Virus record (IMG/VR): IMGVR_UViG_3300025372_000013
Source of the DNA: an uncultured virus (IMG/VR IMGVR_UViG_3300025372_000013)
Lineage: Duplodnaviria; Heunggongvirae; Uroviricota; Caudoviricetes
Length of the DNA stretch: 35,468 nucleotides
Reading direction: 5' to 3' (one strand)
A program made the position numbers and the translations under genes. Each line of letters starts with the position of its first letter. The first letter of the stretch is position 1. Below are positions 3,403 through 19,706 of the stretch, piece after piece. The notes below the pieces were generated by a model, which saw only the letters and a program-made list of their open reading frames with translations, had not been told where the DNA came from and ran no database searches.

Positions 3403-4392
3403 TCACCTATTAAACTCTTTAGGGATGTACCCCTCTTTAAATGGCCCGTACTTAAGGTTGATCTTTGTGTACTTGCAAAACCTATCCACTTTTGACTTGT
3501 TAGCTGGGTTAGTTACGTACTTTATCCAATTCTGTTTGATAGAGTCGTAGTATTCCTCGTTAGTCAGCATCTTAGGGTTAGCCCCGCTTACCCTATAGGT
3601 AGGGTGGAGAACGTTCTCTGGAGAAGTGTTGTTCTGAAATAGATGGGAAAGAGGTACCGTCATATTTGGGAACACCAAAGAAAAGCCAGCCTCTAACAAG
3701 CTCATTGTCTGGATAATCTCTTCTTCCCAAAAGATGGTGTCTATATCTAGACCAGTGTTCCCGAAGTAATGCTTGTTAGAGAATACAAACTGAGCATTAA
3801 ATTTAACTGCTGGAACATACAAGTCATCCGATCTGTACTTGTGGGAGTCTGGACCAGCCAATGGCTCATCAGACCATGCTGGGATACCGGTATTGTTCCA
3901 GGTCCTAAAAATCATAATAGGGTACTGAGCAAGCTTGTCGTGCCTTAGAGGGACACGATCTCCATTATCTAGATGCTTAAACCCAGGCAAATAAGCAGTC
4001 ATAATTGTCTTTGGGTTTTTAGTTGCCTCTAACGCACCCTCATACATCTTGATTAGTTTAGTATCCCAATTCTTTTCAAATAAGGTGTGCGAGTCTACTT
4101 GAAGGATGTAGTCTTCCCCATCATACATAGATAGGGCCTGGTCCCTACCAAAACCGATAGAAGGTTCATACTCATCTACCTTAAAGCGCTTAAACTTTAC
4201 TTGTGGGAATTCAAGGAGCTTTTCTATCTTGTCCTTGTAATAAAACTCGTAATCAACTTGTGGGTGGACAGTCTCCATAAGAACAAGACCAATAGTAAGG
4301 TCATCTGGATTAGCGGCACTCTGAATAGCCTCAAATACAGTGAAGGGGAGCTGATTATCGTACATGGTTGGGATAGCAATGTAGATAGACAT
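3403..4392 (-). CDS. Glycosyltransferase, GT60-like (GlcNAc transferase family)
   Basis: N-terminal IYIAIPTMYD; GFGR..A..MYDGEDYILQVDSH..FEKNWD..LI; FWEEE...GF..V.P....LSHL. These match the Skp1-hydroxyproline GlcNAc-transferase (GT60) signature. Confidence 0.8.
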   Translation of the reverse strand: MSIYIAIPTMYDNQLPFTVFEAIQSAANPDDLTIGLVLMETVHPQVDYEFYYKDKIEKLLEFPQVKFKRFKVDEYEPSIGFGRDQALSMYDGEDYILQVDSHTLFEKNWDTKLIKMYEGALEATKNPKTIMTAYLPGFKHLDNGDRVPLRHDKLAQYPIMIFRTWNNTGIPAWSDEPLAGPDSHKYRSDDLYVPAVKFNAQFVFSNKHYFGNTGLDIDTIFWEEEIIQTMSLLEAGFSLVFPNMTVPLSHLFQNNTSPENVLHPTYRVSGANPKMLTNEEYYDSIKQNWIKYVTNPANKSKVDRFCKYTKINLKYGPFKEGYIPKEFNR

Positions 4393-4393
4393 C

Positions 4394-4558
4394 TTAATCC
4401 TCTAGATCTACAAAGGTAGGGTTACTTAAAAATAGCGAGGCTAGTCTGGGGCTATTTACCCCAAAGACTTCAACAATCTCGCCATCTACAACCACACCAA
4501 GACGGATGGTCTTAACTTCAACTACCGCCTCAACAGGCTTATTCTTTTTAAACATCAT
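4394..4558 (-). CDS. Small 'LSNPTF' family protein (54 aa, not in ORF track)
   Basis: MMFKKNKPVEAVVEVKTIRLGVVVDGEIVEVFGVNSPRLASLFLSNPTFVDLED*; ATGA overlap with upstream gene; paralogous to 11675..12010 and 10579..10965. Confidence 0.85.
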   Translation of the reverse strand: MMFKKNKPVEAVVEVKTIRLGVVVDGEIVEVFGVNSPRLASLFLSNPTFVDLED

Positions 4559-5238
4559 GAGTACTCCTTTGGCTTACGCCATAACTTTTTATATACGCCT
4601 GTTGCAGAACGTAGGTAACTACTTCTTTCTACCTGATCTGCCGTTTCAGTGTAGTCTTGAACAGATAACCACTTGTCTCTTTTAATAGGGATTAGTTGTG
4701 CAATAGGGGTACCCGCAGGTATTACTCCAGTCCAACCTTCTCGTATAAAGAATGGCACATTACCCCAACCAGTAAACTCTTCGCTATCAACTATGCCGGA
4801 CATGGTAGTGAACGGCAGATCGAATCTGTTTACGGGATGGGTTAATAATACGCTATAACCCTCAGGAACCTTCCACCCCCATTGACAATTCCATGCTAGG
4901 TGGTTGTGTGCATGCCCGGCAGGACGGGGTATTGTGTGGCCAGTTAAACCTAGTCTCTCTGTTAGTACAGGAAACCCAGTTTCTTCCCAGCTTAGTTTAG
5001 AGCGACCTTCATCATCTAAGGTCACCTCAATATCAACAGGGGTAACCAACATATAGCCAGAAATCATGGCATCAAGAAAAGGTACGCAGACTTTTAAGCC
5101 ATCGTATTTAACGCCGTGCTTATCGTAGTAATGGCGCTCAGCATTTTTATACCAGTCTGGGACTTCGCTCTTTGCAGGTACTGGCGGCCTATGCTCTTTT
5201 TTTACACCAGGGCTAGGTACAAACCTAAAGACCTTCAT
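4555..5238 (-). CDS. DUF6065-like protein, copy 2
   Basis: P.WY...LKVCVPFLDAM.SGY...P.G.S.L.THP.NR.DLPF.T.SG.VDS...IPAGTP..Q.IP.KR; close paralogue of 10965..11657. Confidence 0.65.
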   Translation of the reverse strand: MKVFRFVPSPGVKKEHRPPVPAKSEVPDWYKNAERHYYDKHGVKYDGLKVCVPFLDAMISGYMLVTPVDIEVTLDDEGRSKLSWEETGFPVLTERLGLTGHTIPRPAGHAHNHLAWNCQWGWKVPEGYSVLLTHPVNRFDLPFTTMSGIVDSEEFTGWGNVPFFIREGWTGVIPAGTPIAQLIPIKRDKWLSVQDYTETADQVERSSYLRSATGVYKKLWRKPKEYS

Positions 5239-5257
5239 GCGCTCCTCCGTACAAACT

Positions 5258-6520
5258 TTATCCAGTAATTGTAGCCGTAAAGTAACCTATGCTATTTCCC
5301 TGAGCTTGAGCTGAGGTTGTTAGAATTATACCAGTCTTTGTAGCCGTAGGAGAACTGCCCAATGTGGTGGTTGCGGTACCCACGCTAGTGGTTTGAGCAT
5401 TGTCGCTAAAAGCAGTGGCGGTTACCGAACTTCCGCTAACTACAACCTTTAGTGAAGATAGTAGGCCGCTTAAGGTAGTAGAGGCCAAGGTAGAGACTGT
5501 TCCAGCAACTGATTGGTAAATATTAAGTAGATATGTAGTATTAGTGAGAGTGCCAGTCGCAGTAGCAGTGTATGTAGAAGGCACGGAATAGCTGCCTGTT
5601 GAAGAGTATGTACCAGAATAGTACGGAGAATAGTTTGTGTAGGAACCTAGTGAACTGTAGGAAGTATATGTTTGGTAGCTGTATGGGCTGCTGATGTCTC
5701 CCTGATTAGGAGACCCTACAACATATGAGCTGTAAGTAGGTTGTACATATGTGCTGTAAGAACCGTAGTTAATTAGATAACGAGTAGATCCCTGGTAGTT
5801 TAATCCACCATTGTAGGTAGCGTATGGTGCGCCGTACCCATTTGCAACATAGAATGAATAAGTTCCATGATCCCAATATCCGGCAGTAACATATTGATAC
5901 CGGGTAGAGTAGACATATGCTCCATCCCAAGAGTAATTGGTTCCTGATACATATTGGCCGGTAGGTTGATATACGTTGAAATAAAAATAGGTAGTTCCGC
6001 TGGCATAGTATCCAAGTGGAGTTCCAGAAGTATATGGGGTGCTGTATGTGTAGGGAGCTGTGTATGTGTATGGTGCTGTGTATCCATATGAATATGAATA
6101 GTATGTATCGTTTTCAAGTCCCACAGCAGCAAGCCAGTTATTAGCATCAGTAACTAAAAAGGCAATACCACTACCTAGGCTTACGTCAGCAGCAGTAGCG
6201 GTTATGTTTGGGTTACCCATATCTGTAGTAGATAGGGTGTTGTTTGAAGGAGAATCAGAAGTTACTGCTTTTCCTGTAGCAGCAGCCCAGGTTCCCTTAA
6301 GAGAGGTCCAAAGACCTCCGCTTGAAGAGGTTCCTAGATATGGCCCACCACGATTAAAAGTATCTGAAAATGATCCAGTAAACCATTGGTGCCAGACACC
6401 ACCAATTTTAATCCAACCTGAGGTTACAGAGTGCCAGCTTTGAATACCGCCGGTTGTAACCTTAGTTAGTAAACTACCAGCTGTACGCCAAACCCCGCCT
6501 ACTTTGACTTGACCACTCAT
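5258..6520 (-). CDS. Putative fibre-tip/adhesin protein with Tyr-rich insert
   Basis: N-terminal K[VI]GGVW repeats; FSDTFNR-type beta-sandwich; ~190-aa Tyr/Ser/Thr/Gly insert; paralogue of 12022..13803. Confidence 0.7.
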   Translation of the reverse strand: MSGQVKVGGVWRTAGSLLTKVTTGGIQSWHSVTSGWIKIGGVWHQWFTGSFSDTFNRGGPYLGTSSSGGLWTSLKGTWAAATGKAVTSDSPSNNTLSTTDMGNPNITATAADVSLGSGIAFLVTDANNWLAAVGLENDTYYSYSYGYTAPYTYTAPYTYSTPYTSGTPLGYYASGTTYFYFNVYQPTGQYVSGTNYSWDGAYVYSTRYQYVTAGYWDHGTYSFYVANGYGAPYATYNGGLNYQGSTRYLINYGSYSTYVQPTYSSYVVGSPNQGDISSPYSYQTYTSYSSLGSYTNYSPYYSGTYSSTGSYSVPSTYTATATGTLTNTTYLLNIYQSVAGTVSTLASTTLSGLLSSLKVVVSGSSVTATAFSDNAQTTSVGTATTTLGSSPTATKTGIILTTSAQAQGNSIGYFTATITG

Positions 6521-7452
6521 TATACATACACCAACCAGACGTCTCCTTCATTGCCTTGTCCAGATGTTGGGGTAGTTGTGCTAACCCACATATTTCGAAC
6601 TACGTTAGAAGATGCGGTAACTGTTGAAGCAGTTGTGACTGATCCGTTAGTCTGAGAAACATAAGAAGTAATAGGAGTCTGCCAAGAAGGTAGACCTCCC
6701 ACAACCGTAAGAACTTGACCAGAAGATCCAATACCCAACCTTGTGTTTCCACTGTTGTATGTAAGTAGGTCTCCGTTTGTTGTTAGGGTGTTGGTAGGAA
6801 GATAAGAAGGCAGGTTGGACCAAGTTGGGATACCCCCAGAAACGGTCAGATACTGGCCTGTAGAGCCAATACCTATGCGACCTACAGTAGATGACCCTGT
6901 GCCGTAGATAAGGTCTCCAGAGGCCGTCACAGTCGAAAGAGGCACCTTTGTATTTGCTAGGGCACCGACTGATGTAACGCTGCTGAGAATGGAGTTATAT
7001 TCTGAGCTACCCACATAAAGGACGTTGCTTCCGCTAACCTGAGGAAGGCCCTGGTAGTTTAGGGTAAAGCCAGGCGTGTTAAGAAGATTGTTAGTTCCTG
7101 TGCCGGTAGTCAATGTGAGCCCTACACCACCAGATGTGCTGGTAGTGATGGTGCTGCCGCCAGTCTTAAATACGTAAGGAGCAACTGATACGCCGTAGAT
7201 CAAACCGTTTTCGATATTGGCAAGACGTTGAGCTAATGTATTCCAAGAGGTGGTTGCTGTACTAAACGCTGTAGACGAGGTGAAGTTGGAGACAAGCACG
7301 CCGCCAGCAAAGCCGTCAGAAGGAACTCCAAGCCCTGTTTCAAGAGCTCTGACTTCTTGCTGCAGAGAGTTTACGTCGTTGGCTACAACAGTATCCTGAA
7401 GATCTACACGGGCTGTATAGGGATAAACTGCATTAGGAAAACCGGTTGTCAT
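6520..7452 (-). CDS. Fibre protein
   Basis: N-terminal V.ANDVNSLQ.EV.ALE anchor; two GDL......RIGIGS.GQ.LTV.GG.P.W repeats; C-terminal TP....EGDVW motif. Confidence 0.7.
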   Translation of the reverse strand: MTTGFPNAVYPYTARVDLQDTVVANDVNSLQQEVRALETGLGVPSDGFAGGVLVSNFTSSTAFSTATTSWNTLAQRLANIENGLIYGVSVAPYVFKTGGSTITTSTSGGVGLTLTTGTGTNNLLNTPGFTLNYQGLPQVSGSNVLYVGSSEYNSILSSVTSVGALANTKVPLSTVTASGDLIYGTGSSTVGRIGIGSTGQYLTVSGGIPTWSNLPSYLPTNTLTTNGDLLTYNSGNTRLGIGSSGQVLTVVGGLPSWQTPITSYVSQTNGSVTTASTVTASSNVVRNMWVSTTTPTSGQGNEGDVWLVYV

Positions 7453-7478
7453 CTAGACTCCTTCACTTAATGCCCACC

Positions 7479-7507
7479 ACGATACCTGAAAACTACAAAA
7501 TTGTCTG
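7479..7507 (-). promoter_or_regulatory. Putative sigma70/SigA-type promoter
   Basis: CAGACA-N17-TATCGT upstream of the AAGGAG RBS of 7452. Confidence 0.5.
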
Positions 7508-7508
7508 C

Positions 7509-7943
7509 CTAGCCAACCAGGTACTTGGTGCAGACCCCGTAGATACCCTCAAAGATACTTAAATCTGTAGGCTCAGTAAGTACCACTATTGACTTGTTTG
7601 TCAAAGCCCTACCAGGGTAAGTCCAGATATAGCCATTGCTGGTCAGGGTATGGTCATCATTTTGGTGCCAGAAGAACCTGGCATCTGGGATGTTGTTAGA
7701 GAAGTATCCTAGGGCCTCAATGTTCTTACAGTGGAACCATGCCTTATCTTTGATGGCGTTTATGAACTCCTCATCAATCTCATAGAACGGCTCATCGTGC
7801 CCTAAGAACATACCTTCCGGATTCATCCAGACATCAACCTCTACGTCATAGCCTTGGGCAATAGCAGAGACTACGTCAACGGGATTGTTCTCCCCGTCCT
7901 TGTTTTCTCCCCTAATCAAACCTCTATGGGCAATCTTAATCAT
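7509..7943 (-). CDS. Short glycerophosphodiester-phosphodiesterase-like protein
   Basis: IAHRG...EN...GYDVEVDV...LGHD...HCKN motifs of the PLC-like/GDPD fold. Confidence 0.75.
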   Translation of the reverse strand: MIKIAHRGLIRGENKDGENNPVDVVSAIAQGYDVEVDVWMNPEGMFLGHDEPFYEIDEEFINAIKDKAWFHCKNIEALGYFSNNIPDARFFWHQNDDHTLTSNGYIWTYPGRALTNKSIVVLTEPTDLSIFEGIYGVCTKYLVG

Positions 7944-9297
7944 TGTTACTCCTAAGGTAGTTGTTTAGATCCTCTGGAGTTCCCACTCCCCACATCTTAT
8001 TAACATGCATAGCATATACACGCTTCCCATCATTAATAGCTTCATTAAATACTGGGGCGGTATAGAACTCTCCGTTAACTGTGATGTTCTTTTCCATCAT
8101 CTGCTCAGCGTACTTAACAAAGTCTGAGCCATGCTTCCAATAGTAAATGCCCACAGTTGCATGATTGCTAATAGGCTTCTTCTCAGCAACTTCTAAAACA
8201 AGGCCTGTATCAGATGCGATTCTTGCATAAGACCACTTAGGGTGGGTAGAGGTGAATGTTGCAATGCCGGCATCAGCATTCTTTACGTTCATATGATACA
8301 TAAAGTCTCTGCTGTCCCAGTCAACGATTTGATCTGAGTTAGCTATGATCAGAGGCTCATCATTATTAATAAGCTCTCTTGCAAGTAAACAGGTCTGGGC
8401 CGCACCGCCTGTAAGCACTGGGGTGCTGATCAAATGGCATCCAGGGGTGATCTTGTCTAGCATGAACATCAAGTTGTATTTTTCTACATGCTCCTGCATA
8501 GAAACATAGATGTAGTTTGCCTCTATACCAAGGCTCTCTACTACACGCTCGATCATAGGCTTACCGTTAACTTCAATAAGAGGTTTAGGGAAGCTATAGC
8601 CAGCATCCGCAAAACGACTCCCTAGTCCTGCCATTGGGATCAAAACATTCATCTTCTTATCCCTAAATGAAGAGGCTTTAGATAGGTGCTCTAGAGCAAG
8701 ATCAATCTTTTCTTTAGTAAGATCTTCCCTATTCTTAATCTCAATAAGATGAGCCCCACTATCCCTAGCAGCAAGTTTTCCAACAAAGCTGTCTTCAAAG
8801 ATAACAACATTTGTTGGAACAGTCTTGAAATAGTTCATGATAGACCAATACATTTCTGGGTGGGGCTTAGAGTTTGCAACTCCGCCATTAGATATGGCTA
8901 CATCCACGTATGGAAGTATCCCCAACTTATCTAAACAGGTCTCTACAGTCTTGGAAATACTGTTACTGGCAACGCCGATGCCAATGCCCTTTGATGCAAT
9001 GTACTTAAAGTGCTCTACAAGATCCCTATCTTCTACTACGTTCTCAAACATCTCTGCAGTGTACTTTTGCTTAAGTTCCCAAATCACTGGGTGCAGCTCT
9101 TGAACAAGCCCCTTACTCTCAGAGAGAATAAACAGCTTCTCCTTAGTAGGCAACCCCTCATATATATTCTTGTGGTCAAAAGTACTAATTACAAGCTCAG
9201 GAGAAACATCTTCCAACGCCATATTCAGAGCGGTAAAATGAATGTCCTTGCTGTCAATCAAGACCCCATCAAGATCAAAGATTATAACTTTTTTCAT
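7936..9297 (-). CDS. HAD phosphatase fused to nucleotidyltransferase (GT-A, BcbE-like)
   Basis: FDLDGVL, SNS, KPHP and FEDS HAD motifs, then LIPMAGLGSRF...PKPLI, NSDQ, EK, GEFY, GTPEDL. Start at 9297 from the ATGA overlap. Confidence 0.88.
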   Translation of the reverse strand: MKKVIIFDLDGVLIDSKDIHFTALNMALEDVSPELVISTFDHKNIYEGLPTKEKLFILSESKGLVQELHPVIWELKQKYTAEMFENVVEDRDLVEHFKYIASKGIGIGVASNSISKTVETCLDKLGILPYVDVAISNGGVANSKPHPEMYWSIMNYFKTVPTNVVIFEDSFVGKLAARDSGAHLIEIKNREDLTKEKIDLALEHLSKASSFRDKKMNVLIPMAGLGSRFADAGYSFPKPLIEVNGKPMIERVVESLGIEANYIYVSMQEHVEKYNLMFMLDKITPGCHLISTPVLTGGAAQTCLLARELINNDEPLIIANSDQIVDWDSRDFMYHMNVKNADAGIATFTSTHPKWSYARIASDTGLVLEVAEKKPISNHATVGIYYWKHGSDFVKYAEQMMEKNITVNGEFYTAPVFNEAINDGKRVYAMHVNKMWGVGTPEDLNNYLRSNND

Positions 9298-10301
9298 GCT
9301 GATAACCACGCTTTCAAGAAAGGATCGTTTTCAATGGTACTAATTACCTCATCCGAACTCCTATTTAGATTAGGAATAGAGACGTAGCGGTGACCCAGTC
9401 TTGCGGCCATTAAGTGATAGAAGTGGTGCATCTCTTCTGTGCCTACAGAGGCAGGCTCAGTAACACCGTTACCAACACTAGTAAAAGCAATAAGCGGAGT
9501 AGTCAGCTCAAGCACGGCAGACCCAGGCGGCATAAATGCAGCGTTTACAAGACCAGAGCTAGTTGTTGATGCTACCAACTTAGCCTTGCTAAAGTAGCTG
9601 ATCTGTGATTCAAAGGTCTTAAATTCATCGGGGGCTACAATCTCAAACCCTAAAGATGCAAAGTAGTTTTCTACCTTGCCTTCATCATCCATGCGGTCAT
9701 CATCCTCATATGGAAGCCGCCCTTTGATCAGAGCTTTAAGGGACCTGCCCTTGTAATTCTTTCTAGTTAGGTAAACTTTCTTACCATCTGCCACGTTTAC
9801 ATCCGGGGTAATGAACTGCTTAGACATTTCGTGGATCTTTGGCCAAGGGTTGTTTACCTCATACGACTCTACTAACAAGTCTCTAAAATAAAGGTTATTG
9901 ATGTTGAACTTATTTATGACCCTAAGATCTACCGGCGCATAATCTACGCCGTTCTTATTAAGGAACTTAAAGAAGTTCTGAATGTAGGTTGGAAGCGGAT
10001 CTCTATCTACAACCCCAGTGATATCAATAATAAACAGGGCATCTGGAGTTAAAGCGTATTGAGCTAAAAACTCACCTAGATCTTCATGCATAAAGTGGTA
10101 GAAAGATGCCCCCAGGTAGACAAATACCTTCATCTGGTCTGAGATAAAGTCTTTTACATGCTTCTCTTTCTTTCCAAACTTTGGGTGAACTTGAAACATG
10201 TTGATATTGTTGCCTGCAACCAGACCTACTTCCTCTGGAGCAAAGCGGTAAGACGTTTGATATGACGTATGATTGAGCGTAGTGGTGCTAGTAGACTTCA
10301 T
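9294..10301 (-). CDS. Glycosyltransferase, GT61 (DUF563)-like
   Basis: YHF..E; KVYLTR; GFEIV.P...FESQI..F..A..V....SGLVN..FM.PG..VLEL. Confidence 0.8.
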   Translation of the reverse strand: MKSTSTTTLNHTSYQTSYRFAPEEVGLVAGNNINMFQVHPKFGKKEKHVKDFISDQMKVFVYLGASFYHFMHEDLGEFLAQYALTPDALFIIDITGVVDRDPLPTYIQNFFKFLNKNGVDYAPVDLRVINKFNINNLYFRDLLVESYEVNNPWPKIHEMSKQFITPDVNVADGKKVYLTRKNYKGRSLKALIKGRLPYEDDDRMDDEGKVENYFASLGFEIVAPDEFKTFESQISYFSKAKLVASTTSSGLVNAAFMPPGSAVLELTTPLIAFTSVGNGVTEPASVGTEEMHHFYHLMAARLGHRYVSIPNLNRSSDEVISTIENDPFLKAWLSA

Positions 10302-10303
10302 TG

Positions 10304-10579
10304 TTATCCCTCGATTATTTTAGTTAAATCATCCTCTGTCAGTTCCCTATCAAAAGGGAGGTCTGGAGTTACCCACTTGTTTAGCGGGCACCTGGCATCT
10401 TGAAGCTTAACTTTAGCATTCATTATGCATCCGCATTCACGGCACTGGTGGGTTAGCTTTATGAAGCGCTCACAACCTTTGCAGGTTTTAAGCCTATTCT
10501 CAGCAATAGCTGGGAGAGCACGCTCCATATTTTTGTTCAGCATATCCCACGGTTTTACTTCCCTAGGGGTATCTGACAT
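10304..10579 (-). CDS. Small Cys-rich protein (DUF6171-like)
   Basis: RLKTCKGC...QCRECGC....K......CPLNKW. Confidence 0.65.
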   Translation of the reverse strand: MSDTPREVKPWDMLNKNMERALPAIAENRLKTCKGCERFIKLTHQCRECGCIMNAKVKLQDARCPLNKWVTPDLPFDRELTEDDLTKIIEG

Positions 10580-10965
10580 TATTGTGATCCCCGCCTTGTA
10601 ACTCCGTGGATGCTAAATGGTTCAAACTTGCCATCTTTATGGACAGATCCAACAGGAGGGCGTGGGTCTCCATCATTAATCTTAACAAATGACGGTCCCT
10701 TTAAAAGAAGTTCGCTAAAACCCTTTTGAACGTTCATAACATCTACTACGATACCATCTAAAACGATAGCTAAGGATACGACTTCTACTCCGGCAGGAGG
10801 CTCGTTTACCGCACATTCTGGGCCATGAACATGTTCTGCCGGGGCATGCTGATGATCATGGTCATGTTTTTTAGCTGCACGCTTTCCCTTTAAGTACTTA
10901 ACAAACTCTTTAGTACTCATAGGCTTTACTTCTGGAACATCGTAGTTCCTAATAACCTTATCCAT
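10579..10965 (-). CDS. 'LSNPTF'-family paralogue with His-rich segment
   Basis: LAIVLDGIVVDVM...LLLKGPSFVKI aligns to the other two paralogues; contains HDHDHQH..HVHGPEC. Confidence 0.7.
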   Translation of the reverse strand: MDKVIRNYDVPEVKPMSTKEFVKYLKGKRAAKKHDHDHQHAPAEHVHGPECAVNEPPAGVEVVSLAIVLDGIVVDVMNVQKGFSELLLKGPSFVKINDGDPRPPVGSVHKDGKFEPFSIHGVTRRGSQ

Positions 10966-11657
10966 TACTCGTAATCCTTCTTAACCCACTCGACGTTTTT
11001 ATACTTATACTGCTCAACACGTACGTTTACAGACTTAACTCTTCCAAGAGCAGTCAAACCAACATCTACAAAAGATCTCCATGAAGCTCTTTTAACGGGT
11101 ATGATTTGTACAAAGGGTGTGCCAGCAGGAATAGTACCTGTCCAGCCCTCCCTTATATGAAAAGGAATGTTGCCATTAGTAAAGAATTTGTCGCTGTCAA
11201 TAGTAGCAGACATGGTTCTAAATGGAAGATCGCTTCTGTTAAATGGGTGGGTAACAATAGTGCTCCAACCACGTGGTGTTTTCCAACCCCACTTAGAAGC
11301 CCAAATTAAATGGTTCTTGCTGTGACCGGCAGGCACAGGGATTGTGGCTCCAAGAGCACTAGGGCGCTCACCAACAAAGCCTTGCCATGCATCTGGCCCA
11401 TCCCACCTTATATTCATTTTTCCGTCTTCATCACGGGTGACGTGGATGTCAAAAGGTGTAAGGAGAAAATACCCGCCGATCATCACATCAATAAAGGGCT
11501 TGCAGGTCTTTAAGCCCGCATTGTTATTCCCGTTTTCATCAACCCAGTGATACTCGCCATCTCTATACCATTGAGGTACGTGCTTTTTACACGGCTCTGG
11601 TTCAAGAAGCATGAGCTCTTTATCTTCAATTTCTGGAACAAATCGTATTACTTTCAT
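10965..11657 (-). CDS. DUF6065-like protein, copy 1
   Basis: VPQWY...GLKTCKPFIDVM.GGY...THPFNR.DLPF...IPAGTPFVQIIPVKR. Confidence 0.65.
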   Translation of the reverse strand: MKVIRFVPEIEDKELMLLEPEPCKKHVPQWYRDGEYHWVDENGNNNAGLKTCKPFIDVMIGGYFLLTPFDIHVTRDEDGKMNIRWDGPDAWQGFVGERPSALGATIPVPAGHSKNHLIWASKWGWKTPRGWSTIVTHPFNRSDLPFRTMSATIDSDKFFTNGNIPFHIREGWTGTIPAGTPFVQIIPVKRASWRSFVDVGLTALGRVKSVNVRVEQYKYKNVEWVKKDYE

Positions 11658-11674
11658 AGTCGCCCTCCCGAATA

Positions 11675-12010
11675 CTATGCTTGTGGTGCTGAATCTACCG
11701 ATGGTGTTGCGGGTGCCTCTTGTGGGGTAGGCGCTACTGGCGCAGCGTTTTGTGGGTTTGCAGGAATAGCATCAACGGCAGGCGGTGGTGTGAAAGCCCC
11801 GTCAGTGTATAAAAATCCTGGGTCAACATAAAGTGTCTTAGGGATTTGAATAAATGTAGGGTTTGAAAGGTAGCGTGCTGCGTCTGTGGTATCTAGATTA
11901 AAAACAGTGTGAACAATCCCGTTAATAACCATTGCAACCCTATAACGACCTGATGTCTCAGGTGGTGTTGGCACAACAAGGGGTGGAACTGGTAGCAAAT
12001 CGTCAGCCAT
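11675..12010 (-). CDS. 'LSNPTF'-family protein with Pro/Ala-rich tails
   Basis: VAMVINGIVHTVF...ARYLSNPTFIQI...G..Y..G.F.PP; AAGGAG RBS; directly follows the tip gene (possible fibre chaperone). Confidence 0.7.
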   Translation of the reverse strand: MADDLLPVPPLVVPTPPETSGRYRVAMVINGIVHTVFNLDTTDAARYLSNPTFIQIPKTLYVDPGFLYTDGAFTPPPAVDAIPANPQNAAPVAPTPQEAPATPSVDSAPQA

Positions 12011-12021
12011 GTATTATCTCC

Positions 12022-13803
12022 TTAGTTTGACTGGGAATTGAAGTCGTCTAGTTGATTACCCTGTACGTAATCGGAAGGTCCTAGTACGATTCCAAACTTA
12101 GTGGCTATTGTAGCACTTGTCGCTGTATATGTGAGGTCGGAACCTATTTGGCTAGTTAGGGCCGTATCCTGATAAGGACGTACGGTAATGACCTTTGTAG
12201 CCGCATTGGTTATTACCTTAAAAGCCGCAGCCAACTGGGATAGGCTCCAACGGGTGATCTCTGAAACTACGTTGCTTGAAGACTGTATAAGGCGAATATA
12301 TCCAGGGAAACAGGTCTGGCAGTTACATGAGGTGTAGCCATATTGAGGGGAAGAGCAATATGGGGCGTAGGTGGCGTAGTAAACGGTACATACTGGGCCA
12401 TAGTAGTTATTAGTAAAAGAGTTGCAGTTAGGGCCAGAATAGCTTGAAATACCGTAGTTGGCGTTTGGTCCAGAGTAGCTGCTTGCTCCATAGCCATTGC
12501 AGCTAGGTCCAGAGTAGGAGGTAGCTCCATATCCATTACAGTTTGGTCCGGTGTAGTTGGATAGGCTGTATACCTGTTGAACTCCATAGCCCGAGACGCC
12601 GTATGAGCTACAAGTAGAGCCTGCATAAGATACGCAGTAGGAGCCTGAAACACCGTAGCCTGCACAGCTGTAATAGGTGCTATAGGCCAAGCAGCCAGAA
12701 ACATATGCTGTACATGGGTGAGAAGTGCTATAGCCTGTACATGGGTGGGAAACAATGTAGTAGTTTCCGCCTTTGTAGTAGGAGTTTCCGTAGCCTACAC
12801 AGGAGTAGGAGGTTCCATAGCTTCCACAAGCTCCTGAATAGTATGCGCTACAGGATCCTCCAGAAGAGTAGCCACCGGTACATCCATAGTTGTTACCGTA
12901 GGCTACACATTGTGGAGAATAAGAAGCACATGCGTAGGTGGTGTAGTATGCGTAGTTTGTACTATAGACTGCTGAGTAGGAGTAGCCTCCAGTACAGCCG
13001 TATCCTGCTACAGAGTACGAATATCCTCCGGTACATCCGTATCCAGATACAGCATATGAATAGCTTACAACTCCATAGTTGGTTGCATAAGAGTAGCCAC
13101 CGGTACATGATGCACTGCTGTAGTAGGCGTAGTTTCCGCAATAAGTTCCGGTTACATATGGGGTATACGCAGCACAAGCATAGGTTGCGCAGGTGGAGCA
13201 GTTACAGGAAGTATTGGTTGAACGACCGTAAGTTACTCCCCACCAGTTGCCTGAGTCAGTAACCCACATAGCAACACCAGCACCACCATCGTTATTGCGG
13301 GTGGCAACGTTAGTAATGCTACCTGTAGTTGGGGCTGAAGAGGCCTGAACCTCAAGAGTGATCTGGCTAGAGCTATCTACCGAAACAATCTGAATATCAG
13401 TATCTGTTCCAAGAGATCCAGTTCCAGGTGTAGCTGAGATCCATTGACCTGCGCCAAGACCTGCTGTGGAGCTAAGTCCGGTAACAACAACGGTGTATCC
13501 ACTAGTTGTTGGGGTTACGGTTGAGATTGTTCCAGAAGCAGAGAATACAAAGGTAGAACCCACAGAAATTGAAGAGGTATTGCTTTTGGAGGTCATGTTT
13601 ACGTCAGCAAGTGGGTATGAAGAAGCTGCTGTAGATGTGGTAGCTGAATAACCGTTAGCTGTCCAAACGCCTTGCTCTGCGTGCCATGCTCCGCCTGAGC
13701 TAGAGGTTCCTAGTGAGCCTGATGTACTCCTATTGAAGTTATCCGAAAAGGAGGCAAAAGCCGTTTGGATAAAGTTCATTAACCCTTGAAAAATACCAGA
13801 CAT
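12022..13803 (-). CDS. Putative fibre-tip/adhesin protein with Cys/Tyr ladder insert
   Basis: FSDNFNR..LGTSSSGG.W and WVTDSGNWW scaffold shared with 5258..6520; a 299-aa insert holds all 28 Cys. Confidence 0.75.
   Translation of the reverse strand: MSGIFQGLMNFIQTAFASFSDNFNRSTSGSLGTSSSGGAWHAEQGVWTANGYSATTSTAASSYPLADVNMTSKSNTSSISVGSTFVFSASGTISTVTPTTSGYTVVVTGLSSTAGLGAGQWISATPGTGSLGTDTDIQIVSVDSSSQITLEVQASSAPTTGSITNVATRNNDGGAGVAMWVTDSGNWWGVTYGRSTNTSCNCSTCATYACAAYTPYVTGTYCGNYAYYSSASCTGGYSYATNYGVVSYSYAVSGYGCTGGYSYSVAGYGCTGGYSYSAVYSTNYAYYTTYACASYSPQCVAYGNNYGCTGGYSSGGSCSAYYSGACGSYGTSYSCVGYGNSYYKGGNYYIVSHPCTGYSTSHPCTAYVSGCLAYSTYYSCAGYGVSGSYCVSYAGSTCSSYGVSGYGVQQVYSLSNYTGPNCNGYGATSYSGPSCNGYGASSYSGPNANYGISSYSGPNCNSFTNNYYGPVCTVYYATYAPYCSSPQYGYTSCNCQTCFPGYIRLIQSSSNVVSEITRWSLSQLAAAFKVITNAATKVITVRPYQDTALTSQIGSDLTYTATSATIATKFGIVLGPSDYVQGNQLDDFNSQSN
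12310..13206 (-). repeat. Mirror-symmetric Cys/Tyr repeat region (protein level)
   Basis: CTGGYS repeats in the first half and Y[ST]GPx[CA]N repeats in the second half; bounded by TSCNCSTC and TSCNCQTC. Confidence 0.85.
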
Positions 13804-16418
13804 TACGTAAGCCCATTTCCACTAATCATCCAAGTAGTTGCAGCAACTTTTAAGAGAGTTGCCATTCCGTATGGTGCTAAAGTTCTAGACCCTGTAGCCC
13901 CGGTTCCTGCTTGCATTAGTGTATCAGATGTGATAGAAACCGTCACAGTCACGCCAGAAGCTGCTACCAAGGCTATAGACGTGCCTACAGGGAAGGCTAC
14001 CGATGCATTTGCAGGAACGGTAAGTGTGCAGTTTGCGTTAAAGTAGATGTGCTTTCCAGCATCGCTGGCTATTAAGGTATATGTTGATCCCACTACTGGC
14101 TGTAAATTTTGAGGCATTCCTGTATAGCCAAGACCAGAGGCGGCGCTTGTAACAGATGCTGCCGTAGGCACAACGCCAGTAGATAGGGAACCTGCCGCAA
14201 TATTTGCTGCAGGGAATGATCCAGAGGTAATAGTGCCCAGAGTAGTGATAGAGGAAGATCCTGCAATAGGCGAGTATGTAGATGCCGCAGTACCGGTGGT
14301 TAGGTATGTAGATGAGTCTAGAGAGCCATCTCCCTTAACAAACTGTGAGGATGTACCTCCACTGGTTATGTGAGAGGTTGCAGTTACAGATGTTAATCCA
14401 GAGAGTGTTAGGGTAGTTCCGCCCAATGAAACAGAGGTTGTACCCAACGTAATAGATGAGTTGGTAAGGCTTGAGTTAGCAATGTTGGTAAGGGTGTTAG
14501 AAGACCCAGAGATTGCTTTATTTGTAAGAGTCTGGGTAGCGTCAATAGTGGCAATATCGCCCGCTGTTGTTCCACCTGGGGTGCGACCTAGAACCTGTGT
14601 GGGGGTAAGGACTGTGGTTCCAGCAATATGGTAGGTTTTACCGGATGCAAGATCAAAGTGCTCAGATGAAAGCCATGAACTGGTTGAAGACTGCCATTGA
14701 AGAGTTTTGTTAGTGGTACCGTATAGAAGCATACCTCCACCATTTGCGGTGGAATCAGAAGGTGTAGCAACCTTGCCAATTTCTATATTCTTATCTTGAA
14801 CCAGTAGGGTAGAAGAGTTGATAGTTTCGGTTGTTCCGGTAACGGTAAGGTTACCGTTAATGGTTACGGTACTGTTGGTGTTACCAATATTGATTGTGTT
14901 GGCGCCGGTTCCAACAGCGGCAATGTTTACCGTACCTGTAGTAATACCGGCACCGATAGCAAGGGCTCCAGTTGTTACGTTAGGAAACAGGGTTGCTGTA
15001 GTTCCGGTTGCAGATACTGCGTTAATGTTATCAATTACCGGTACAGTTAAGGTCTTATTTGTAAGGGTCTGGACGCCAGTTAGTGTTGCAACAGTAGAGT
15101 CAATAGCTACGGTTACAGCACCAGAACCGTCATAGGATGAGCCACTAAGGCCTGTGCCTATTGTAAGAGCATTTGGATTGACCGCTTTAATTGTAATATC
15201 GGCAGAACCATCAAACGAAACGCTGTTAATCAAACGAGCAGTTTGCAGCTTAGTTGCTGTAGCGGCATTACCATCAATACTAATACCTGTCAAGGTTTGA
15301 GAGCCTGAAGCACGGTTTAGTGCAATGGCGGTAGTACCAATGTAGTTCGTTGAGTTGCCTAATACCGTTGAAGGTATTGTTCCAGTAAGGTTACCTGCTG
15401 TTAGGTTAGTTAAGTTTGCGCCAGAAACTGATCCAAATAAACCTGACCAAGTTCCTGTGGTAACTGTTCCGGTTGTAACTAAAGATGTAGATCCAGCAAT
15501 AGGTGAGTAGGTAGACGCAGCAGTACCTGTGGTCAGATAGGTGCTGGAATCTAAAGAACCATCGCCTTTAACAAACTGACTAGATGTGCCAGAGGTAGTA
15601 ACAAACTTAGTAGCTGTTAGGTTACCTAGGTAATCTATCTTAGCCAAAGTTGTTCCAGATGAGTTTTGATATTGAACAAGGTCAGACGTTTGAGACGGGG
15701 CACCCTTTACAATCATGCCAACAACTGAAGGCCCATTTGTATATATGCCTAGTCTTGCACCTAACGCAGTTGCATTTCCAATAGTTCCAGAGCCTTGAAA
15801 AGTATTTCCATACTTATCAACCCAAAGATACTTAGTACCATTTATGTTAACATTAAGTACATCAGATGTGGTTGAAGCTGGAGCATTTACCGTAAGAGGT
15901 ACAACGCTTGTAGATGTAGGTGCAATTGTCTGTTGTGCAGTAAAGCTATTTGCCGCACCTAATTGTGGAACAACAGTAGTATCAATTGCTAGAGTTCCAG
16001 ATGAGGTAATAGTTCCACCAGTAAGTCCTGTACCCGCAGTAATAGAGGTTACAGTTCCACTACCTCCAAGAGAAGCCCACTGTAGTCCAGAACCTGTAGA
16101 CTGTAAAACTTGTCCAGAGGTACCTGTAGAACCACCCGCAGAGATCTTGGGTACGGTTAAAATACCGTCATCTGTGAGGTTAAAGATGTTAGAGTTATAC
16201 GCATCGTTGATGATCTGAAGTTCACCGGCGCTGCTAATGCGGAAGTTTTTGCTTGGATTGGTGGCACCTGAATAGGTGTTAGTAGCGATTAGGAAATCGT
16301 GGTAGCCAGTGCCACCACGATTTGCATATCCTACTAGCTGTAAGGCTTGACTACTACCTGTCGTATTAATTACAAGGGTACCGCTTATACTAGCAGGGGA
16401 TAAAAATGCCCTGGTCAT
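13803..16418 (-). CDS. Long fibre protein (871 aa)
   Basis: Thr/Ser/Gly-rich fibre motifs (GTVTSITAGTGLTGG, GNAATATKLQTARLIN, QTLTNK, INGNLTVTGT); C-terminal YTL.ASDAGK...FPVGT...TWMISG domain. Confidence 0.85.
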   Translation of the reverse strand: MTRAFLSPASISGTLVINTTGSSQALQLVGYANRGGTGYHDFLIATNTYSGATNPSKNFRISSAGELQIINDAYNSNIFNLTDDGILTVPKISAGGSTGTSGQVLQSTGSGLQWASLGGSGTVTSITAGTGLTGGTITSSGTLAIDTTVVPQLGAANSFTAQQTIAPTSTSVVPLTVNAPASTTSDVLNVNINGTKYLWVDKYGNTFQGSGTIGNATALGARLGIYTNGPSVVGMIVKGAPSQTSDLVQYQNSSGTTLAKIDYLGNLTATKFVTTSGTSSQFVKGDGSLDSSTYLTTGTAASTYSPIAGSTSLVTTGTVTTGTWSGLFGSVSGANLTNLTAGNLTGTIPSTVLGNSTNYIGTTAIALNRASGSQTLTGISIDGNAATATKLQTARLINSVSFDGSADITIKAVNPNALTIGTGLSGSSYDGSGAVTVAIDSTVATLTGVQTLTNKTLTVPVIDNINAVSATGTTATLFPNVTTGALAIGAGITTGTVNIAAVGTGANTINIGNTNSTVTINGNLTVTGTTETINSSTLLVQDKNIEIGKVATPSDSTANGGGMLLYGTTNKTLQWQSSTSSWLSSEHFDLASGKTYHIAGTTVLTPTQVLGRTPGGTTAGDIATIDATQTLTNKAISGSSNTLTNIANSSLTNSSITLGTTSVSLGGTTLTLSGLTSVTATSHITSGGTSSQFVKGDGSLDSSTYLTTGTAASTYSPIAGSSSITTLGTITSGSFPAANIAAGSLSTGVVPTAASVTSAASGLGYTGMPQNLQPVVGSTYTLIASDAGKHIYFNANCTLTVPANASVAFPVGTSIALVAASGVTVTVSITSDTLMQAGTGATGSRTLAPYGMATLLKVAATTWMISGNGLT
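14256..15590 (-). repeat. Two copies of an identical 34-aa segment (14256..14357 and 15489..15590)
   Basis: GTSSQFVKGDGSLDSSTYLTTGTAASTYSPIAGS occurs twice; 19 of 34 codons differ, all synonymously. Confidence 0.9.
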
Positions 16419-16430
16419 TTAACGACCCCC

Positions 16431-18188: not shown

Positions 18189-18201
18189 TTATAGTTTCTC
18201 C

Positions 18202-19652: not shown

Positions 19653-19677
19653 AAATCCTCCATCAGATAGTGTGCTA

Positions 19678-19706
19678 ATCATCTAACAAATCTTGAGATT
19701 AGTCAG
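19678..19706 (-). promoter_or_regulatory. Putative sigma70/SigA-type promoter
   Basis: CTGACT-N17-GATGAT directly after the terminator, ~25 nt before the start at 19652. Confidence 0.45.

Follow-up and report, generated by a model that had tools for sequence, protein, structure and literature searches.

Two fibre-tip cassettes in a variable fibre region

The window, that is, the whole stretch of 35,468 nucleotides analysed here from an uncultured virus, has a tailed-phage context, with capsid, portal and terminase genes all present. Its capsid protein shares 74% identity with the one from the Streptomyces phage LuckySocke, and the head genes are similar to their counterparts in the Streptomyces myoviruses BRock and LuckySocke; complete relatives measure ~100 kb (100-110 kb for the five that are 95-100% complete). 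Genes 18555-19682 and 2798-3373 match LuckySocke gp82 and gp83, which are neighbours in that phage and precede its genes for tailspike and sheath. The ~15 kb at 3403-18558, between these two conserved structural genes, are a variable fibre region of this freshwater phage, and most of it is taken up by two cassettes, A and B, which are probable receptor-binding modules of different lineages (Table 1). Two further genes (16431-18558) lie beyond the noted cassettes yet within the same variable insert, between the homologues of gp82 and gp83. In two relatives (L013 and L020), the module is followed by sheath, tube and baseplate genes.

Table 1. Genes of the variable fibre region, from the upstream end of the minus strand
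Feature	Length (aa)	Position	Strand	Matches and remarks
Fibre-like protein and small protein	585 and 118	16431..18558	-	PHROG virion structural and head-decoration families
Fibre shaft A	871	13803..16418	-	phrog_1833 'tail fiber protein' 1.1e-6; phrog_6002 'virion structural protein' 5.7e-15
Tip A	593	12022..13803	-	Paralogue of tip B; member of tip family HMM
LSNPTF A1	111	11675..12010	-	E 3e-6 to LSNPTF B; 80.9 bits to family HMM
DUF6065-like A	230	10965..11657	-	phrog_7084 9.1e-30; 48% identity to copy B (E 3e-73)
LSNPTF-like A2	128	10579..10965	-	48 bits to family HMM; TAATG coupling on both sides
Six-Cys protein, DUF6171-like zinc-ribbon type	91	10304..10579	-	PF19668; phrog_13558 1.3e-16
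GT61-family glycosyltransferase	335	9294..10301	-	PF04577 6.5e-15, 56 bits (cut-off 27)
HAD (beta-phosphoglucomutase-like) and sugar-1-phosphate nucleotidyltransferase fusion	457	7936..9309	-	HAD_2 1.1e-24; NTP_transferase 1e-11
Small ORF	144	7509..7943	-	phrog_34507 (unknown function) 2e-24
Fibre shaft B	310	6520..7452	-	phrog_23837 'virion structural protein' 1.3e-6; TAATG overlap with tip B
Tip B	420	5258..6520	-	AlphaFold model; ConA-like jelly-roll (predicted) split by loop
DUF6065-like B	227	4555..5238	-	phrog_7084 9.7e-38; model pLDDT 85.6
LSNPTF B	54	4394..4558	-	ATGA overlap with DUF6065-like stop; E 3e-6 to A1
GT60-family glycosyltransferase	329	3403..4392	-	PF11397 5.4e-20, 72.6 bits (cut-off 21)

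An earlier note on this DNA had named 14 genes here, and an ORF check returned all of their ends, on the minus strand throughout. Pairwise comparison and family HMM searches agreed with it that the tip, DUF6065-like and LSNPTF genes are paralogous between the cassettes. The two fibre shafts had no detectable similarity to each other in pairwise comparison; shaft A contains an internal 138-nt duplication (repeat D1, 14220-14357 and 15453-15590), and orthologues of shaft B lie upstream of the tip in four relatives (L003-L006) and others. In each module the fibre-shaft gene is translationally coupled to the tip gene, its stop overlapping the tip start. This TAATG overlap is present in both cassettes, as the note had it, but is not peculiar to the fibre/tip junction, as it recurs between DUF6065-like A and LSNPTF-like A2 and between A2 and the six-Cys gene. 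A promoter proposed at 7479-7507 was not recovered by a sigma-70 scan, which listed no site there and fewer promoter-like sites in the whole region than in shuffled sequence (13 versus 25.8); the space upstream of cassette B is just 56 nt long and contains a ribosome-binding site. The label 'GDPD-like' for the small ORF was not supported: no Pfam family matched it even at E<=1, its only match was its PHROG, and a PDB sequence search gave no meaningful match.

The tip is a predicted lectin-like domain split by a hypervariable loop

The AlphaFold model of tip B had a pLDDT above 90 at residues ~50-150 and 320-420 and below 50 at 154-312. Lectin and carbohydrate-binding-module (CBM) jelly-rolls and phage receptor-binding domains came top among its structural matches (Z 17.0-15.2), led by the galactocerebrosidase lectin domain (Z 17.0, 164 aligned, rmsd 2.6) and followed by CBM66 (Z 16.7), the receptor-binding domain of TM4 gp23 (Z 15.6) and the Douge baseplate (Z 15.2). 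The model thus predicts that the outer thirds of tip B fold together into a ConA-like lectin jelly-roll, like mycobacteriophage receptor-binding domains. To judge by sequence, tip A has the same conserved ends: the C-terminal 86 residues of the two tips are 33% identical (E 6e-8), and an N-terminal motif and a Tyr-rich middle are common to both. This predicted jelly-roll with an uncharged loop of 160-310 residues inserted in it is new relative to the earlier note.

In tip A, the conserved N- and C-terminal parts flank a low-complexity loop of ~314 residues rich in Tyr, Cys, Gly and Ser, and in tip B the loop (residues ~154-312) is Cys-free and Tyr-rich. Loops of the family carry almost no charge and abound in Ser, Tyr, Thr, Gly and Asn, with Cys too in cassette A. 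A regular expression located the loop borders in 18 of 73 tips, and in these the composition was S 13.8, Y 13.7, T 11.7, G 11.4, N 10.0, A 9.4 and C 6.4%, while D+E+K+R made up 3.7%. Aromatic- or Cys-rich tip middles occur in all lineages. In tip A, tandem repeats with a 39-nt unit lie at 12467-12556 and at 12974-13064, and comparison of the window with two relatives (L031 and L002) showed almost identical tip flanks and a loop riddled with indels. Contigs from two other freshwater samples differed by ~4% in the flanks (63/1567 and 61/1576 letters) and by 12-18% within 12506-12967, and also carried in-frame changes of 39, 57-to-18, 105-to-108 and 3 nt. The loop is the fastest-changing part of the tip, through in-frame gain and loss of repeats and a three- to four-fold denser substitution between near-identical phages. 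Its exposure is assumed only, because the model pLDDT is below 50 there.

The DUF6065-like protein has a dUTPase-like predicted fold

The DUF6065-like proteins belong to the family phrog_7084, a sister of Pfam DUF6065; PF19541 itself matched copy B only, at 17.6 bits, below its cut-off of 26.6. In a structural search with the model of copy B, the top 22 matches were all dUTPases, dCTP deaminases or herpesvirus dUTPase-related proteins (Z 9.1-5.0), and Foldseek matched dUTPase-type folds at E 5e-4. This fold is also new relative to the earlier note. Kinship by sequence is weak: hhalign aligned the most conserved stretch of the family with dUTPase motifs III-IV (probability 6.8%, E 0.0053), a profile search of PDB sequences returned nothing at E<=10, and PF00692 (dUTPase) matched neither copy in Pfam searches. 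W29 and C51 are common to 100% of viral and cellular members, and K49, D56, D69, N137, D140, D153, Q181, K186 and R187 are found in >=86%.

Homologues also occur apart from any tip, on bacterial chromosomes, in haloarchaeal viruses and in oxygenase clusters, and no tip, LSNPTF or Cys-protein gene was found near the homologue at 80 genome-contig loci or in halovirus HF2. At four alphaproteobacterial loci (Bradyrhizobium, Afipia and Phenylobacterium) the homologue stands beside a convergent TPR protein, with no phage genes around. Because of the dUTPase-like fold, the conserved polar residues and these tip-less occurrences, the DUF6065-like protein looks more like a broadly used enzyme than like a classical fibre chaperone.

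Two other readings start from the same fold. dUTPases are trimeric jelly-rolls, and the DUF6065-like and LSNPTF proteins might be virion parts, for instance a jelly-roll knob of three subunits plus a small connecting piece at the fibre end. The clear fold match, the translational coupling to structural genes and the position of the HF2 homologue beside a baseplate/fibre block are consistent with this. However, the DUF6065-like protein is far more conserved than the tips (41-60% identity in distant phages), its invariant polar residues are retained in chromosomal bacterial homologues without phage context, and the HF2 gene lies on the strand opposite to the fibre genes; we consider the two proteins unlikely to be virion parts. 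Alternatively, the protein could be a divergent dUTPase or dCTP deaminase whose place beside the tip has no functional meaning. Besides the fold and the aligned motif III-IV region, this would fit the lack of a PF00692 dUTPase in the five complete relatives and, in HF2, the proximity of the homologue to a ribonucleotide reductase gene, which lies 434 nt away across a single small ORF. It is likewise unlikely in our estimation, as complete genomes carry two to three paralogues in fixed order with the tip and LSNPTF genes, and first-position and second-position copies fall in separate clades (copy A in a 36-row clade of copies that come first after the tip). Moreover, a canonical dUTPase accompanies the homologue in 5/5 genomes or MAGs checked, the PF00692 match is absent, and the consensus has no evident glycine-rich C-terminal arm like that of dUTPase motif V.

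The tip, LSNPTF and DUF6065-like genes travel together

We surveyed the gene neighbourhoods of the best 80 of 597 viral matches to the DUF6065-like protein; most of these viruses are related phages, so the gene order in common may partly be inheritance. Of the 72 viral loci with enough upstream DNA, 65 had a tip that ended upstream of the first DUF6065-like gene and no more than 1.6 kb from it, with the order tip-(LSNPTF)-DUF6065-like kept in 65/72, and an LSNPTF gene abutted the DUF6065-like gene at 68/79 loci. The remaining 7/72 had a DUF6065-like gene without a tip. The module is carried by at least two different phage backbones, and its gene set recurs in many uncultured phages. In one relative (L081), the DUF6065-like gene is paired with a Gly_rich_2 protein. 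These counts bear out the proposal that tip, DUF6065-like and LSNPTF genes travel as a set. The cassette B tip and DUF6065-like gene each grouped with L003-L011 in the same clade of 11 rows (support 100), and the whole block also occurs in phages that have cassette B alone. Cassettes A and B thus belong to different lineages and are not a recent duplication; the same architecture with paralogous genes does occur twice, but the separate clades make the earlier term 'duplicated cassette' misleading.

LSNPTF A1 matched no Pfam or PHROG family. LSNPTF-like A2 was not significantly similar to LSNPTF in pairwise comparison (E 1.7); its HMM score was obtained with a family HMM made without A2 or its orthologues, against which two control proteins scored nothing. 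The family has 725 cluster representatives, and among the 150 listed all are small. The six-Cys protein scored 26.9 bits against PF19668 (DUF6171), just below the cut-off of 27. Its gene accompanied 32/32 Cys-rich tips versus 2/22 Cys-poor tips (n=54), an association that reflects 2-3 independent changes only (sign test p 0.5). The window itself fits, with a six-Cys protein only in cassette A, whose tip contains Cys, and in L019, L033 and L034 three additional Cys-rich tips are each directly followed by a Cys gene alone.

Glycosyltransferases are optional members of the module

The two cassette glycosyltransferases (GTs) belong to separate families, as had been proposed, and both exceed the Pfam cut-off. 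The neighbouring fusion protein also matched TIGR02009 (3.8e-24) and rmlA_long (3.5e-13), in both cases under the equivalog cut-off. GT-like genes of several families were present in the module at 44/79 loci, namely GT60 at 27, in the same position, GT61 at 5 and GT2-like at 17; at 5/79 loci GT61 came together with the fusion gene and the small ORF that follow it here. A search for GT-like genes found none at 35/79 loci, indicating that a GT is not part of the module core. The idea of an exchangeable GT with each tip therefore holds in that the families swap, but the GT is optional.

The earlier note had read the cassettes as a candidate glycosylated-appendage system. On such a reading, their main purpose would be to place sugar on the hydroxyl-rich tip, with the GT as effector, helped by the DUF6065-like and LSNPTF proteins. 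Ser, Thr and Tyr make up ~39% of the loops, and the GT60 and GT61 genes within the cassettes, the frequency of GT-like genes and the NDP-sugar-forming fusion beside GT61 all point this way. Virion glycosylation is experimentally known in mycobacteriophages. Against it, at 16 of the 35 GT-less loci the tip, LSNPTF and DUF6065-like genes are intact while 0/71 neighbouring ORFs match GT Pfam families, and the GTs might instead act on the host envelope or on a different virion protein. We therefore regard this purpose as doubtful for the cassettes as a whole, although glycosylation of the tip is plausible. One mycobacteriophage is reported to encode GTs thought to glycosylate capsids (PMC11256854).

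A model for the two modules

The explanation that we favour, with moderate confidence, is that the region holds two receptor-binding modules, each of which brings maturation factors of its own. The loop would be an exposed, variable host-recognition surface, and the dUTPase-fold protein may be an enzyme that acts in its maturation. The LSNPTF protein could be a small adaptor of the dUTPase-fold protein or a fibre chaperone, and the six-Cys protein may serve Cys-rich loops, for example by handling metals or disulphides. GT60, and GT61 with the NDP-sugar-forming enzyme, would be optional extras whose probable role is to attach sugar to the fibre or tip. Of the earlier interpretation, the co-travel of tip, DUF6065-like and LSNPTF genes is retained, but the DUF6065-like protein looks enzyme-like.

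Comparison with known systems

T-even gp38-type adhesins are small fibre-tip adhesins with glycine-rich scaffolding and aromatic-rich hypervariable segments, whose gene adjoins the fibre gene and which need helpers. The present tip is instead predicted to be ConA-like and not a polyglycine sandwich, its loop is far longer and repeat-driven, and of its putative helpers one has a predicted dUTPase fold and the other an LSNPTF domain. Trimeric dUTPases, dCTP deaminases and herpesvirus dUTPase-related proteins have their fold in common with the DUF6065-like protein, which is ~80 residues longer, has invariant residues of its own (W29, C51, K49, D56) and occurs in several paralogues within a fibre module.

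In the Skp1 prolyl-hydroxylase/GT60 (Gnt1) pathway of protists, a GT60 enzyme acts as well, and P4H-type 2OG oxygenases occur in the module at 4/79 related loci; Pfam searches found none in the window, and the target protein here is unrelated. Mycobacteriophage virion glycosylation likewise has GT genes beside structural genes, here in an actinophage-like virus with Ser/Thr-rich segments in a structural protein. The GTs here are of GT60 and GT61 type and optional, and the presumed acceptor is the tip loop, not the capsid or tail tube.

Bordetella phage Mtd, the target of a diversity-generating retroelement, is also a hypervariable receptor-binding tip, and an Mtd_N domain is found in fibres upstream of the tip in relatives at 8/16 scanned loci. 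The window has no template/variable repeat pair, and no reverse transcriptase is among its PHROG or Pfam matches; unlike in Mtd, loop variation here is by repeat slippage and substitution.

Further counterparts are two actinobacteriophage receptor-binding domains, the C-terminal domain of TM4 gp23 (9n6a) and the Douge baseplate (8zdo), and the CBM on the Dit protein of phage J-1 (5ly8), with the same ConA-like/CBM jelly-roll by model comparison (Z 15.6, 15.2 and 12.7). In these phages too the jelly-roll sits distally on a fibre or baseplate protein, and the lineage of the present phage is related to actinophages. They have no sequence similarity to the present tips, tip A having zero matches in 50,697 phage records, and the jelly-roll predicted here differs in being split by a hypervariable low-complexity loop of 160-310 residues and followed by dedicated accessory genes.

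Two cassettes in a region inserted into a conserved structural backbone

Essentially all genes of the window, which is phage DNA, lie on the minus strand. Its capsid protein shares 72-74% identity with the counterparts in the Streptomyces phages LuckySocke, Alone3 and BRock (genomes of roughly 113 kb). Two window genes match LuckySocke gp82 and gp83, which in that phage are adjacent and lie upstream of the tailspike, minor tail and sheath genes; since these genes flank the region carrying the two cassettes, that whole region is an insert within a conserved structural backbone. An ORF check recovered all of the genes that the earlier note had named, with the same ends, and Pfam bore out its two glycosyltransferase (GT) labels, GT60 and GT61. 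The TAATG proposed for both fibre/tip junctions was also found, and it recurs at two further junctions of cassette A. Two other proposals fell away: a consensus scan, which found fewer sites across the whole region than in shuffles, detected no promoter for cassette B at 7479-7507, and the 144-aa ORF labelled GDPD-like had no Pfam match at E ≤ 1 and no NCBIfam family. Fibre A contains an internal 138-nt direct repeat with 72% identity between copies, and its shaft therefore grew by segment duplication. Elsewhere, the window encodes a 320-aa protein with PASTA domains (E 1e-6), which are typical of Gram-positive peptidoglycan-binding proteins; judged from sequence, an actinobacterial host fits this protein and the capsid likeness to Streptomyces phages. 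An HslV-family peptidase-like gene lies upstream of the packaging genes.

Features of the window and of related loci, with family matches
Feature	Sequence	Coordinates	Family or match
HslV-family peptidase-like gene	window	34578-35144	phrog_1040, 4.4e-26
PASTA-domain protein	window	33545-34507	
Terminase	window	24529-26100	
Portal	window	22214-23932	
Major capsid	window	20199-21275	
Flanking gene	window	18555-19682	LuckySocke gp82
Insert	window	3403-18558	
Fibre A	window	13803-16418	
Direct repeat in fibre A	window	14220-14357 / 15453-15590	
Tip A	window	12022-13803	
Tandem repeats in tip A	window	12467-12556, 12974-13064	
DUF6065-like A	window	10965-11657	phrog_7084, 9.1e-30, residues 2-224
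GT61, cassette A	window		PF04577, 56 bits (gathering cut-off 27), residues 67-264, full profile covered
Fusion protein, cassette A	window		beta-phosphoglucomutase-like HAD domain + sugar-1-phosphate nucleotidyltransferase (family scans)
144-aa ORF	window	7509-7943	
Fibre B	window	6520-7452	
Tip B	window	5258-6520	
DUF6065-like B	window	4555-5238	phrog_7084, 9.7e-38, residues 5-201
LSNPTF B	window	4394-4558	
GT60, cassette B	window	3403-4392	PF11397 GlcNAc transferase, 72.6 bits (gathering cut-off 21), residues 64-258
Flanking gene	window	2798-3373	LuckySocke gp83
Tryptophan-halogenase-family gene	L042	17448-19034	PF04820, 2.3e-102
528-aa ORF	L067	15495-17081	
DUF6065/oxygenase runs	L078	15652-20452	
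DUF6065/oxygenase runs	L079	11516-12112, 17968-20112	
DUF6065/oxygenase runs	L061	12478-13029	
DUF6065/oxygenase runs	L026	5660-6238	
DUF6065/oxygenase runs	L085		
DUF6065/oxygenase runs	L087		
Fibre, Gly_rich_2 and DUF6065-like genes	L081	5709-8687	

The cassettes had been described as a duplication, and the claimed paralogy was confirmed. The DUF6065-like proteins share 48% identity (E 3e-73), the tips have in common an N-terminal motif, a middle of low complexity and a stretch of 86 residues at the C-terminus (E 6e-8), and LSNPTF B, one of the small LSNPTF-domain proteins, matches LSNPTF A1 (E 3e-6). For the LSNPTF-like protein A2, pairwise comparison was not significant, but it reached 48 bits with a family model from which it had been excluded, on which two unrelated small proteins scored nothing. 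The fibre shafts were unrelated in pairwise comparison. The pair is not a recent duplication, however. A tree of 118 DUF6065-like proteins sets first-position, second-position and distant copies apart; copy B falls in an 11-row clade (support 100) with phages that carry cassette B alone (L003-L011), copy A falls in another clade of 36 rows (support 95), and the window has no second-position copy. In the tip tree, tip B belongs to the same 11-row clade. Because the DUF6065-like copies lie in separate clades and tip B accompanies copy B, the two cassettes are old lineages that were brought together.

A predicted lectin fold and a hypervariable loop in the tip proteins

The tips matched no Pfam family by sequence, and a search with the C-terminal domain found only 13 relatives, all close and unnamed. 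In the AlphaFold model of tip B, built on a 39-sequence alignment, residues ~50-150 and 320-420 have a pLDDT above 90 and residues 154-312 form a low-confidence loop (pLDDT <50). The confident N- and C-terminal parts make up one ConA-like lectin/glucanase jelly-roll in the model. A VIA search against representative chains returned 122 chains at Z ≥ 8, with the galactocerebrosidase lectin domain (3zr5, Z 17.0) as the best match, together with CBM66 (4b1m, Z 16.7), the receptor-binding domain of mycobacteriophage TM4 gp23 (9n6a, Z 15.6) and a Douge baseplate chain (8zdo, Z 15.2); Foldseek alone returned nothing at E ≤ 0.001 with the tip model. Since the confident parts match ConA-like and phage receptor-binding domains, the tip is probably a lectin-fold receptor-binding domain with a long inserted loop.

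In all of 72 tip homologues the middle is aromatic-rich and/or Cys-rich, with up to 12% Tyr and 11% Cys. Among the 18 of 73 tips with parsable loop borders, the loop is rich in S, Y, T, G, N, A and C, charged residues account for only 3.7%, and Cys spacing peaks at 5 and 8. A period-2 (beta-strand) spacing of the loop aromatics was not seen in the same 18 tips, where lags 1-4 are depleted.

The loop varies far more than its surroundings. Tip A and its orthologues in the viral contigs L031 and L002 differ almost exclusively within the loop, by multiple indels of repeat units, while the DUF6065-like genes of the window and L031 are 98% identical beside tip A and 96% in cassette B. Tip A carries 39-nt tandem repeats. 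In contigs of two other freshwater samples (X10 and X18), divergence from the window is ~4% in the flanks and 12-18% inside 12506-12967, and the length changes (39, 57-to-18, 105-to-108 and 3 nt) all preserve the frame; runs X4 and X5, which have gaps across parts of the stretch, were left out as evidence. At 12168-12172, the X10/X18 strains also lack one nucleotide and have an extra one 4 nt away, so that the tip A frame is lost for one to two codons and then regained. A diversity-generating retroelement was considered as a source of this variation and rejected. The only direct repeats in the window are those internal to fibre A and tip A, and no reverse transcriptase was among the family hits of the scanned window ORFs; with no template repeat in the rest of the window, the variation is not due to a retroelement. 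These results point to variation of host recognition by slippage.

A predicted dUTPase-type fold in the DUF6065-like proteins

Both DUF6065-like proteins match the same PHROG family. Against PF19541 (DUF6065; gathering cut-off 26.6 bits), copy B reached 17.6 bits (E 0.0028) and copy A gave no match; 21 of 32 family members matched this profile weakly (best E 2e-4), and true DUF6065 paralogues scored above the cut-off in three related loci (L078, L079 and L085). Because the window proteins fall below the cut-off and true paralogues elsewhere exceed it, they represent a sister family, not Pfam DUF6065 itself. A word-index protein search found 907 relatives, some on contigs up to 115 kb, and no functional name occurs among those listed.

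The DUF6065-like model had a pLDDT of 85.6. When it was compared with 48,161 chains by VIA-align, the top 22 rows all belonged to the dUTPase/dCTP deaminase superfamily, from Z 9.1 (rmsd 3.4, 127 aligned) to 5.0, and the row after them had a Z of 4.0. Foldseek against the PDB also returned a dUTPase/dCTP deaminase match (E 5.2e-4), and in BFVD dUTPases came next after the family's own uncharacterised members. The protein is thus modelled with a dUTPase-type jelly-roll fold. Sequence lends weak support to this kinship: PF00692 had no match in the DUF6065-like proteins, their profile found none of the PDB sequences at E ≤ 10, and hhalign against four bacterial dUTPases aligned 46 columns over motifs III-IV at E 0.0053 but with a probability of 6.8%. 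Across viral and cellular members, W29 and C51 are conserved at 100% and K49, D56, D69, N137, D140, D153, Q181, K186 and R187 at at least 86%, a residue set that looks enzyme-like. Canonical dUTPases are missing from five complete relatives (100-110 kb), which have two to three DUF6065-like copies each; in the homologue-bearing genomes checked (three alphaproteobacterial isolates and two MAGs), a canonical dUTPase is also present in 5/5.

Conserved neighbourhood of the module in related viruses

The best 80 of 597 confirmed viral-contig matches to the dUTPase-fold gene, representing 79 loci, were surveyed. As the earlier note had anticipated, these genes keep close company with tips: of the 72 loci whose upstream sequence spans at least 2.5 kb, profile searches found 65 in which a tip gene ends within 1.6 kb before the first DUF6065-like gene, and an LSNPTF gene adjoined a DUF6065-like gene in 68/79 loci. 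The seven tip-less loci had as neighbours a GT2-like gene, methyltransferases, a lysozyme-like gene or five P4H-type 2OG oxygenases. The usual gene orders were tip-DUF-LSN-GT60, tip-LSN-DUF-LSN-DUF-GT60-Cys and tip-Cys-LSN-DUF (DUF, DUF6065-like; LSN, LSNPTF; Cys, six-Cys gene), the general arrangement tip-(LSN)-DUF was kept in the 65 of 72 loci given above, and the fibre preceding the tip frequently contained Mtd_N or collagen repeats. The module occurred in two backbones, either before sheath, tube and baseplate genes or before a PF04860 portal and an S78 protease. GT-like genes are optional: 44/79 loci had one (GT60 in 27, GT61 with two companions in 5, GT2-like in 17, a further putative type in 9), and none of 71 neighbouring ORFs matched GT families in 16 loci without them.

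The LSNPTF family is large, with 725 cluster representatives in an exhaustive profile search (270 at E ≤ 1e-10), and all 150 representatives listed are small (61-218 aa), some with tandem domain copies. No Pfam or PHROG family accounts for these proteins. The ESM Atlas gave a lead to tail-fibre assembly chaperones below the Atlas bar (feature score 0.80, TM 0.43-0.47), and PF02413 (Caudo_TAP) and PF16778 matched 0/24 and 0/150 members, leaving this lead with no Pfam support in 174 members.

The six-Cys protein matches phrog_13558 (1.3e-16) and scores 26.9 bits against PF19668 (DUF6171; cut-off 27), 0.1 bit short. For 54 tips with enough downstream DNA, the gene was sought within 4.5 kb downstream; it followed 32/32 Cys-rich tips (at least 2% Cys) versus 2/22 Cys-poor tips, a comparison that comprises only two to three independent contrasts on the DUF6065-like tree (sign test, p 0.5). 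The window repeats the contrast, with the gene present in cassette A, which has the Cys-rich tip, and absent from cassette B, which has the Cys-free tip. The link between the six-Cys protein and Cys-rich tips is suggestive, not proven. Three loci (L019, L033 and L034) contain three extra Cys-rich tips, directly followed by a six-Cys gene alone.

In L042, whose phage has no recognisable tip upstream of its DUF6065-like genes, a tryptophan-halogenase-family gene adjoins a six-Cys gene and extra DUF6065-like copies. In L067 the genes are arranged alike, and a 528-aa ORF there, a putative counterpart, starts with an N-terminus near-identical to that of the halogenase-family protein. Distant DUF6065 paralogues above the Pfam cut-off lie within runs of three to six P4H-type 2OG-Fe(II) oxygenase genes (PF13640). 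Such runs occur in 4/79 viral loci and on two MAG contigs, where the homologue sits amid the oxygenases, and suggest a putative DUF6065-oxygenase partnership apart from the tip module.

DUF6065-like homologues outside this phage group

Homologues are also present in 49 haloarchaeal tailed viruses. In halovirus HF2 the gene has a ribonucleotide reductase gene on one side and the baseplate/fibre block on the other, and its strand is opposite to that of the fibre genes. On genome contigs, 314 matches were confirmed and 80 kept for survey. When neighbours were scanned, four alphaproteobacterial loci (Bradyrhizobium, Afipia and Phenylobacterium) had the homologue beside a convergent TPR protein, with no phage genes around. 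This multi-TPR protein always follows the homologue on these chromosomes (L092, L105, L117 and L089), forming a conserved pair. No tip, LSNPTF or six-Cys gene was found at the 80 kept genome-contig loci or in HF2; the role of the DUF6065-like family is therefore wider and probably enzymatic, and its tie to tips characterises one large phage group. In an Actinomycetota MAG (L081), a Gly_rich_2-domain protein takes the place of a ConA-like tip and, together with an Mtd_N/PTR fibre, precedes a DUF6065-like gene; the accessory gene can therefore partner a fibre tip of a different type.

Discussion

Phage host choice is decided by receptor-binding proteins, which are mostly unreadable in uncultured freshwater phages. 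The best-supported reading of the two cassettes is that they are two receptor-binding modules, each with a lectin-fold tip bearing a slippage-driven variable loop and its own non-structural helpers, and with sugar-modifying genes as optional extras. The analysis demonstrates the gene content, the two folds, the loop hypervariability and a conserved gene order, the last weakened by the relatedness of the sampled loci to one another. The loop, modelled at low confidence, would serve as the recognition surface, and the dUTPase-fold protein, whose family also occurs outside fibre modules, may be an enzyme acting on it. The LSNPTF protein could be an adaptor or chaperone, the six-Cys protein would serve Cys-rich loops, and the GTs would act on the fibre.

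A bolder proposal, which we consider improbable, is that the dUTPase-fold DUF6065-like proteins form a new class of protein-modifying enzymes. They would use a nucleotide-linked donor, with LSNPTF as adaptor, to target Tyr, Ser, Thr and Cys of the low-complexity loop, in a conserved priming step elaborated by exchangeable GTs or, in relatives, by P4H-type oxygenases and a halogenase. If true, the lectin scaffold would display an adhesive loop that is chemically modified and made hypervariable by its repeats, and the phage would diversify its host range by a route distinct from diversity-generating retroelements.

Under the receptor-binding-module reading, the module has a recognisable signature, namely a tip of lectin fold whose uncharged, repeat-driven loop is rich in aromatic residues or Cys, and behind it dUTPase-fold and LSNPTF genes. 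It attaches a testable role to the DUF6065-like, DUF6171-like and LSNPTF families; the literature searched held no mention or explanation of DUF6065, DUF6171 or LSNPTF. A Cys-rich tip with a six-Cys protein and a Cys-free tip without one, in a single genome, are a ready-made experiment. Helper genes next to fibre genes, receptor-binding domains of lectin fold and phage GTs are each of a known kind. What appears to be undescribed is the combination seen here, in which a ConA-like tip is split by a long, uncharged repeat loop rich in aromatic residues or Cys and is accompanied by an accessory protein of dUTPase fold, LSNPTF and a six-Cys protein tied to Cys-rich tips.
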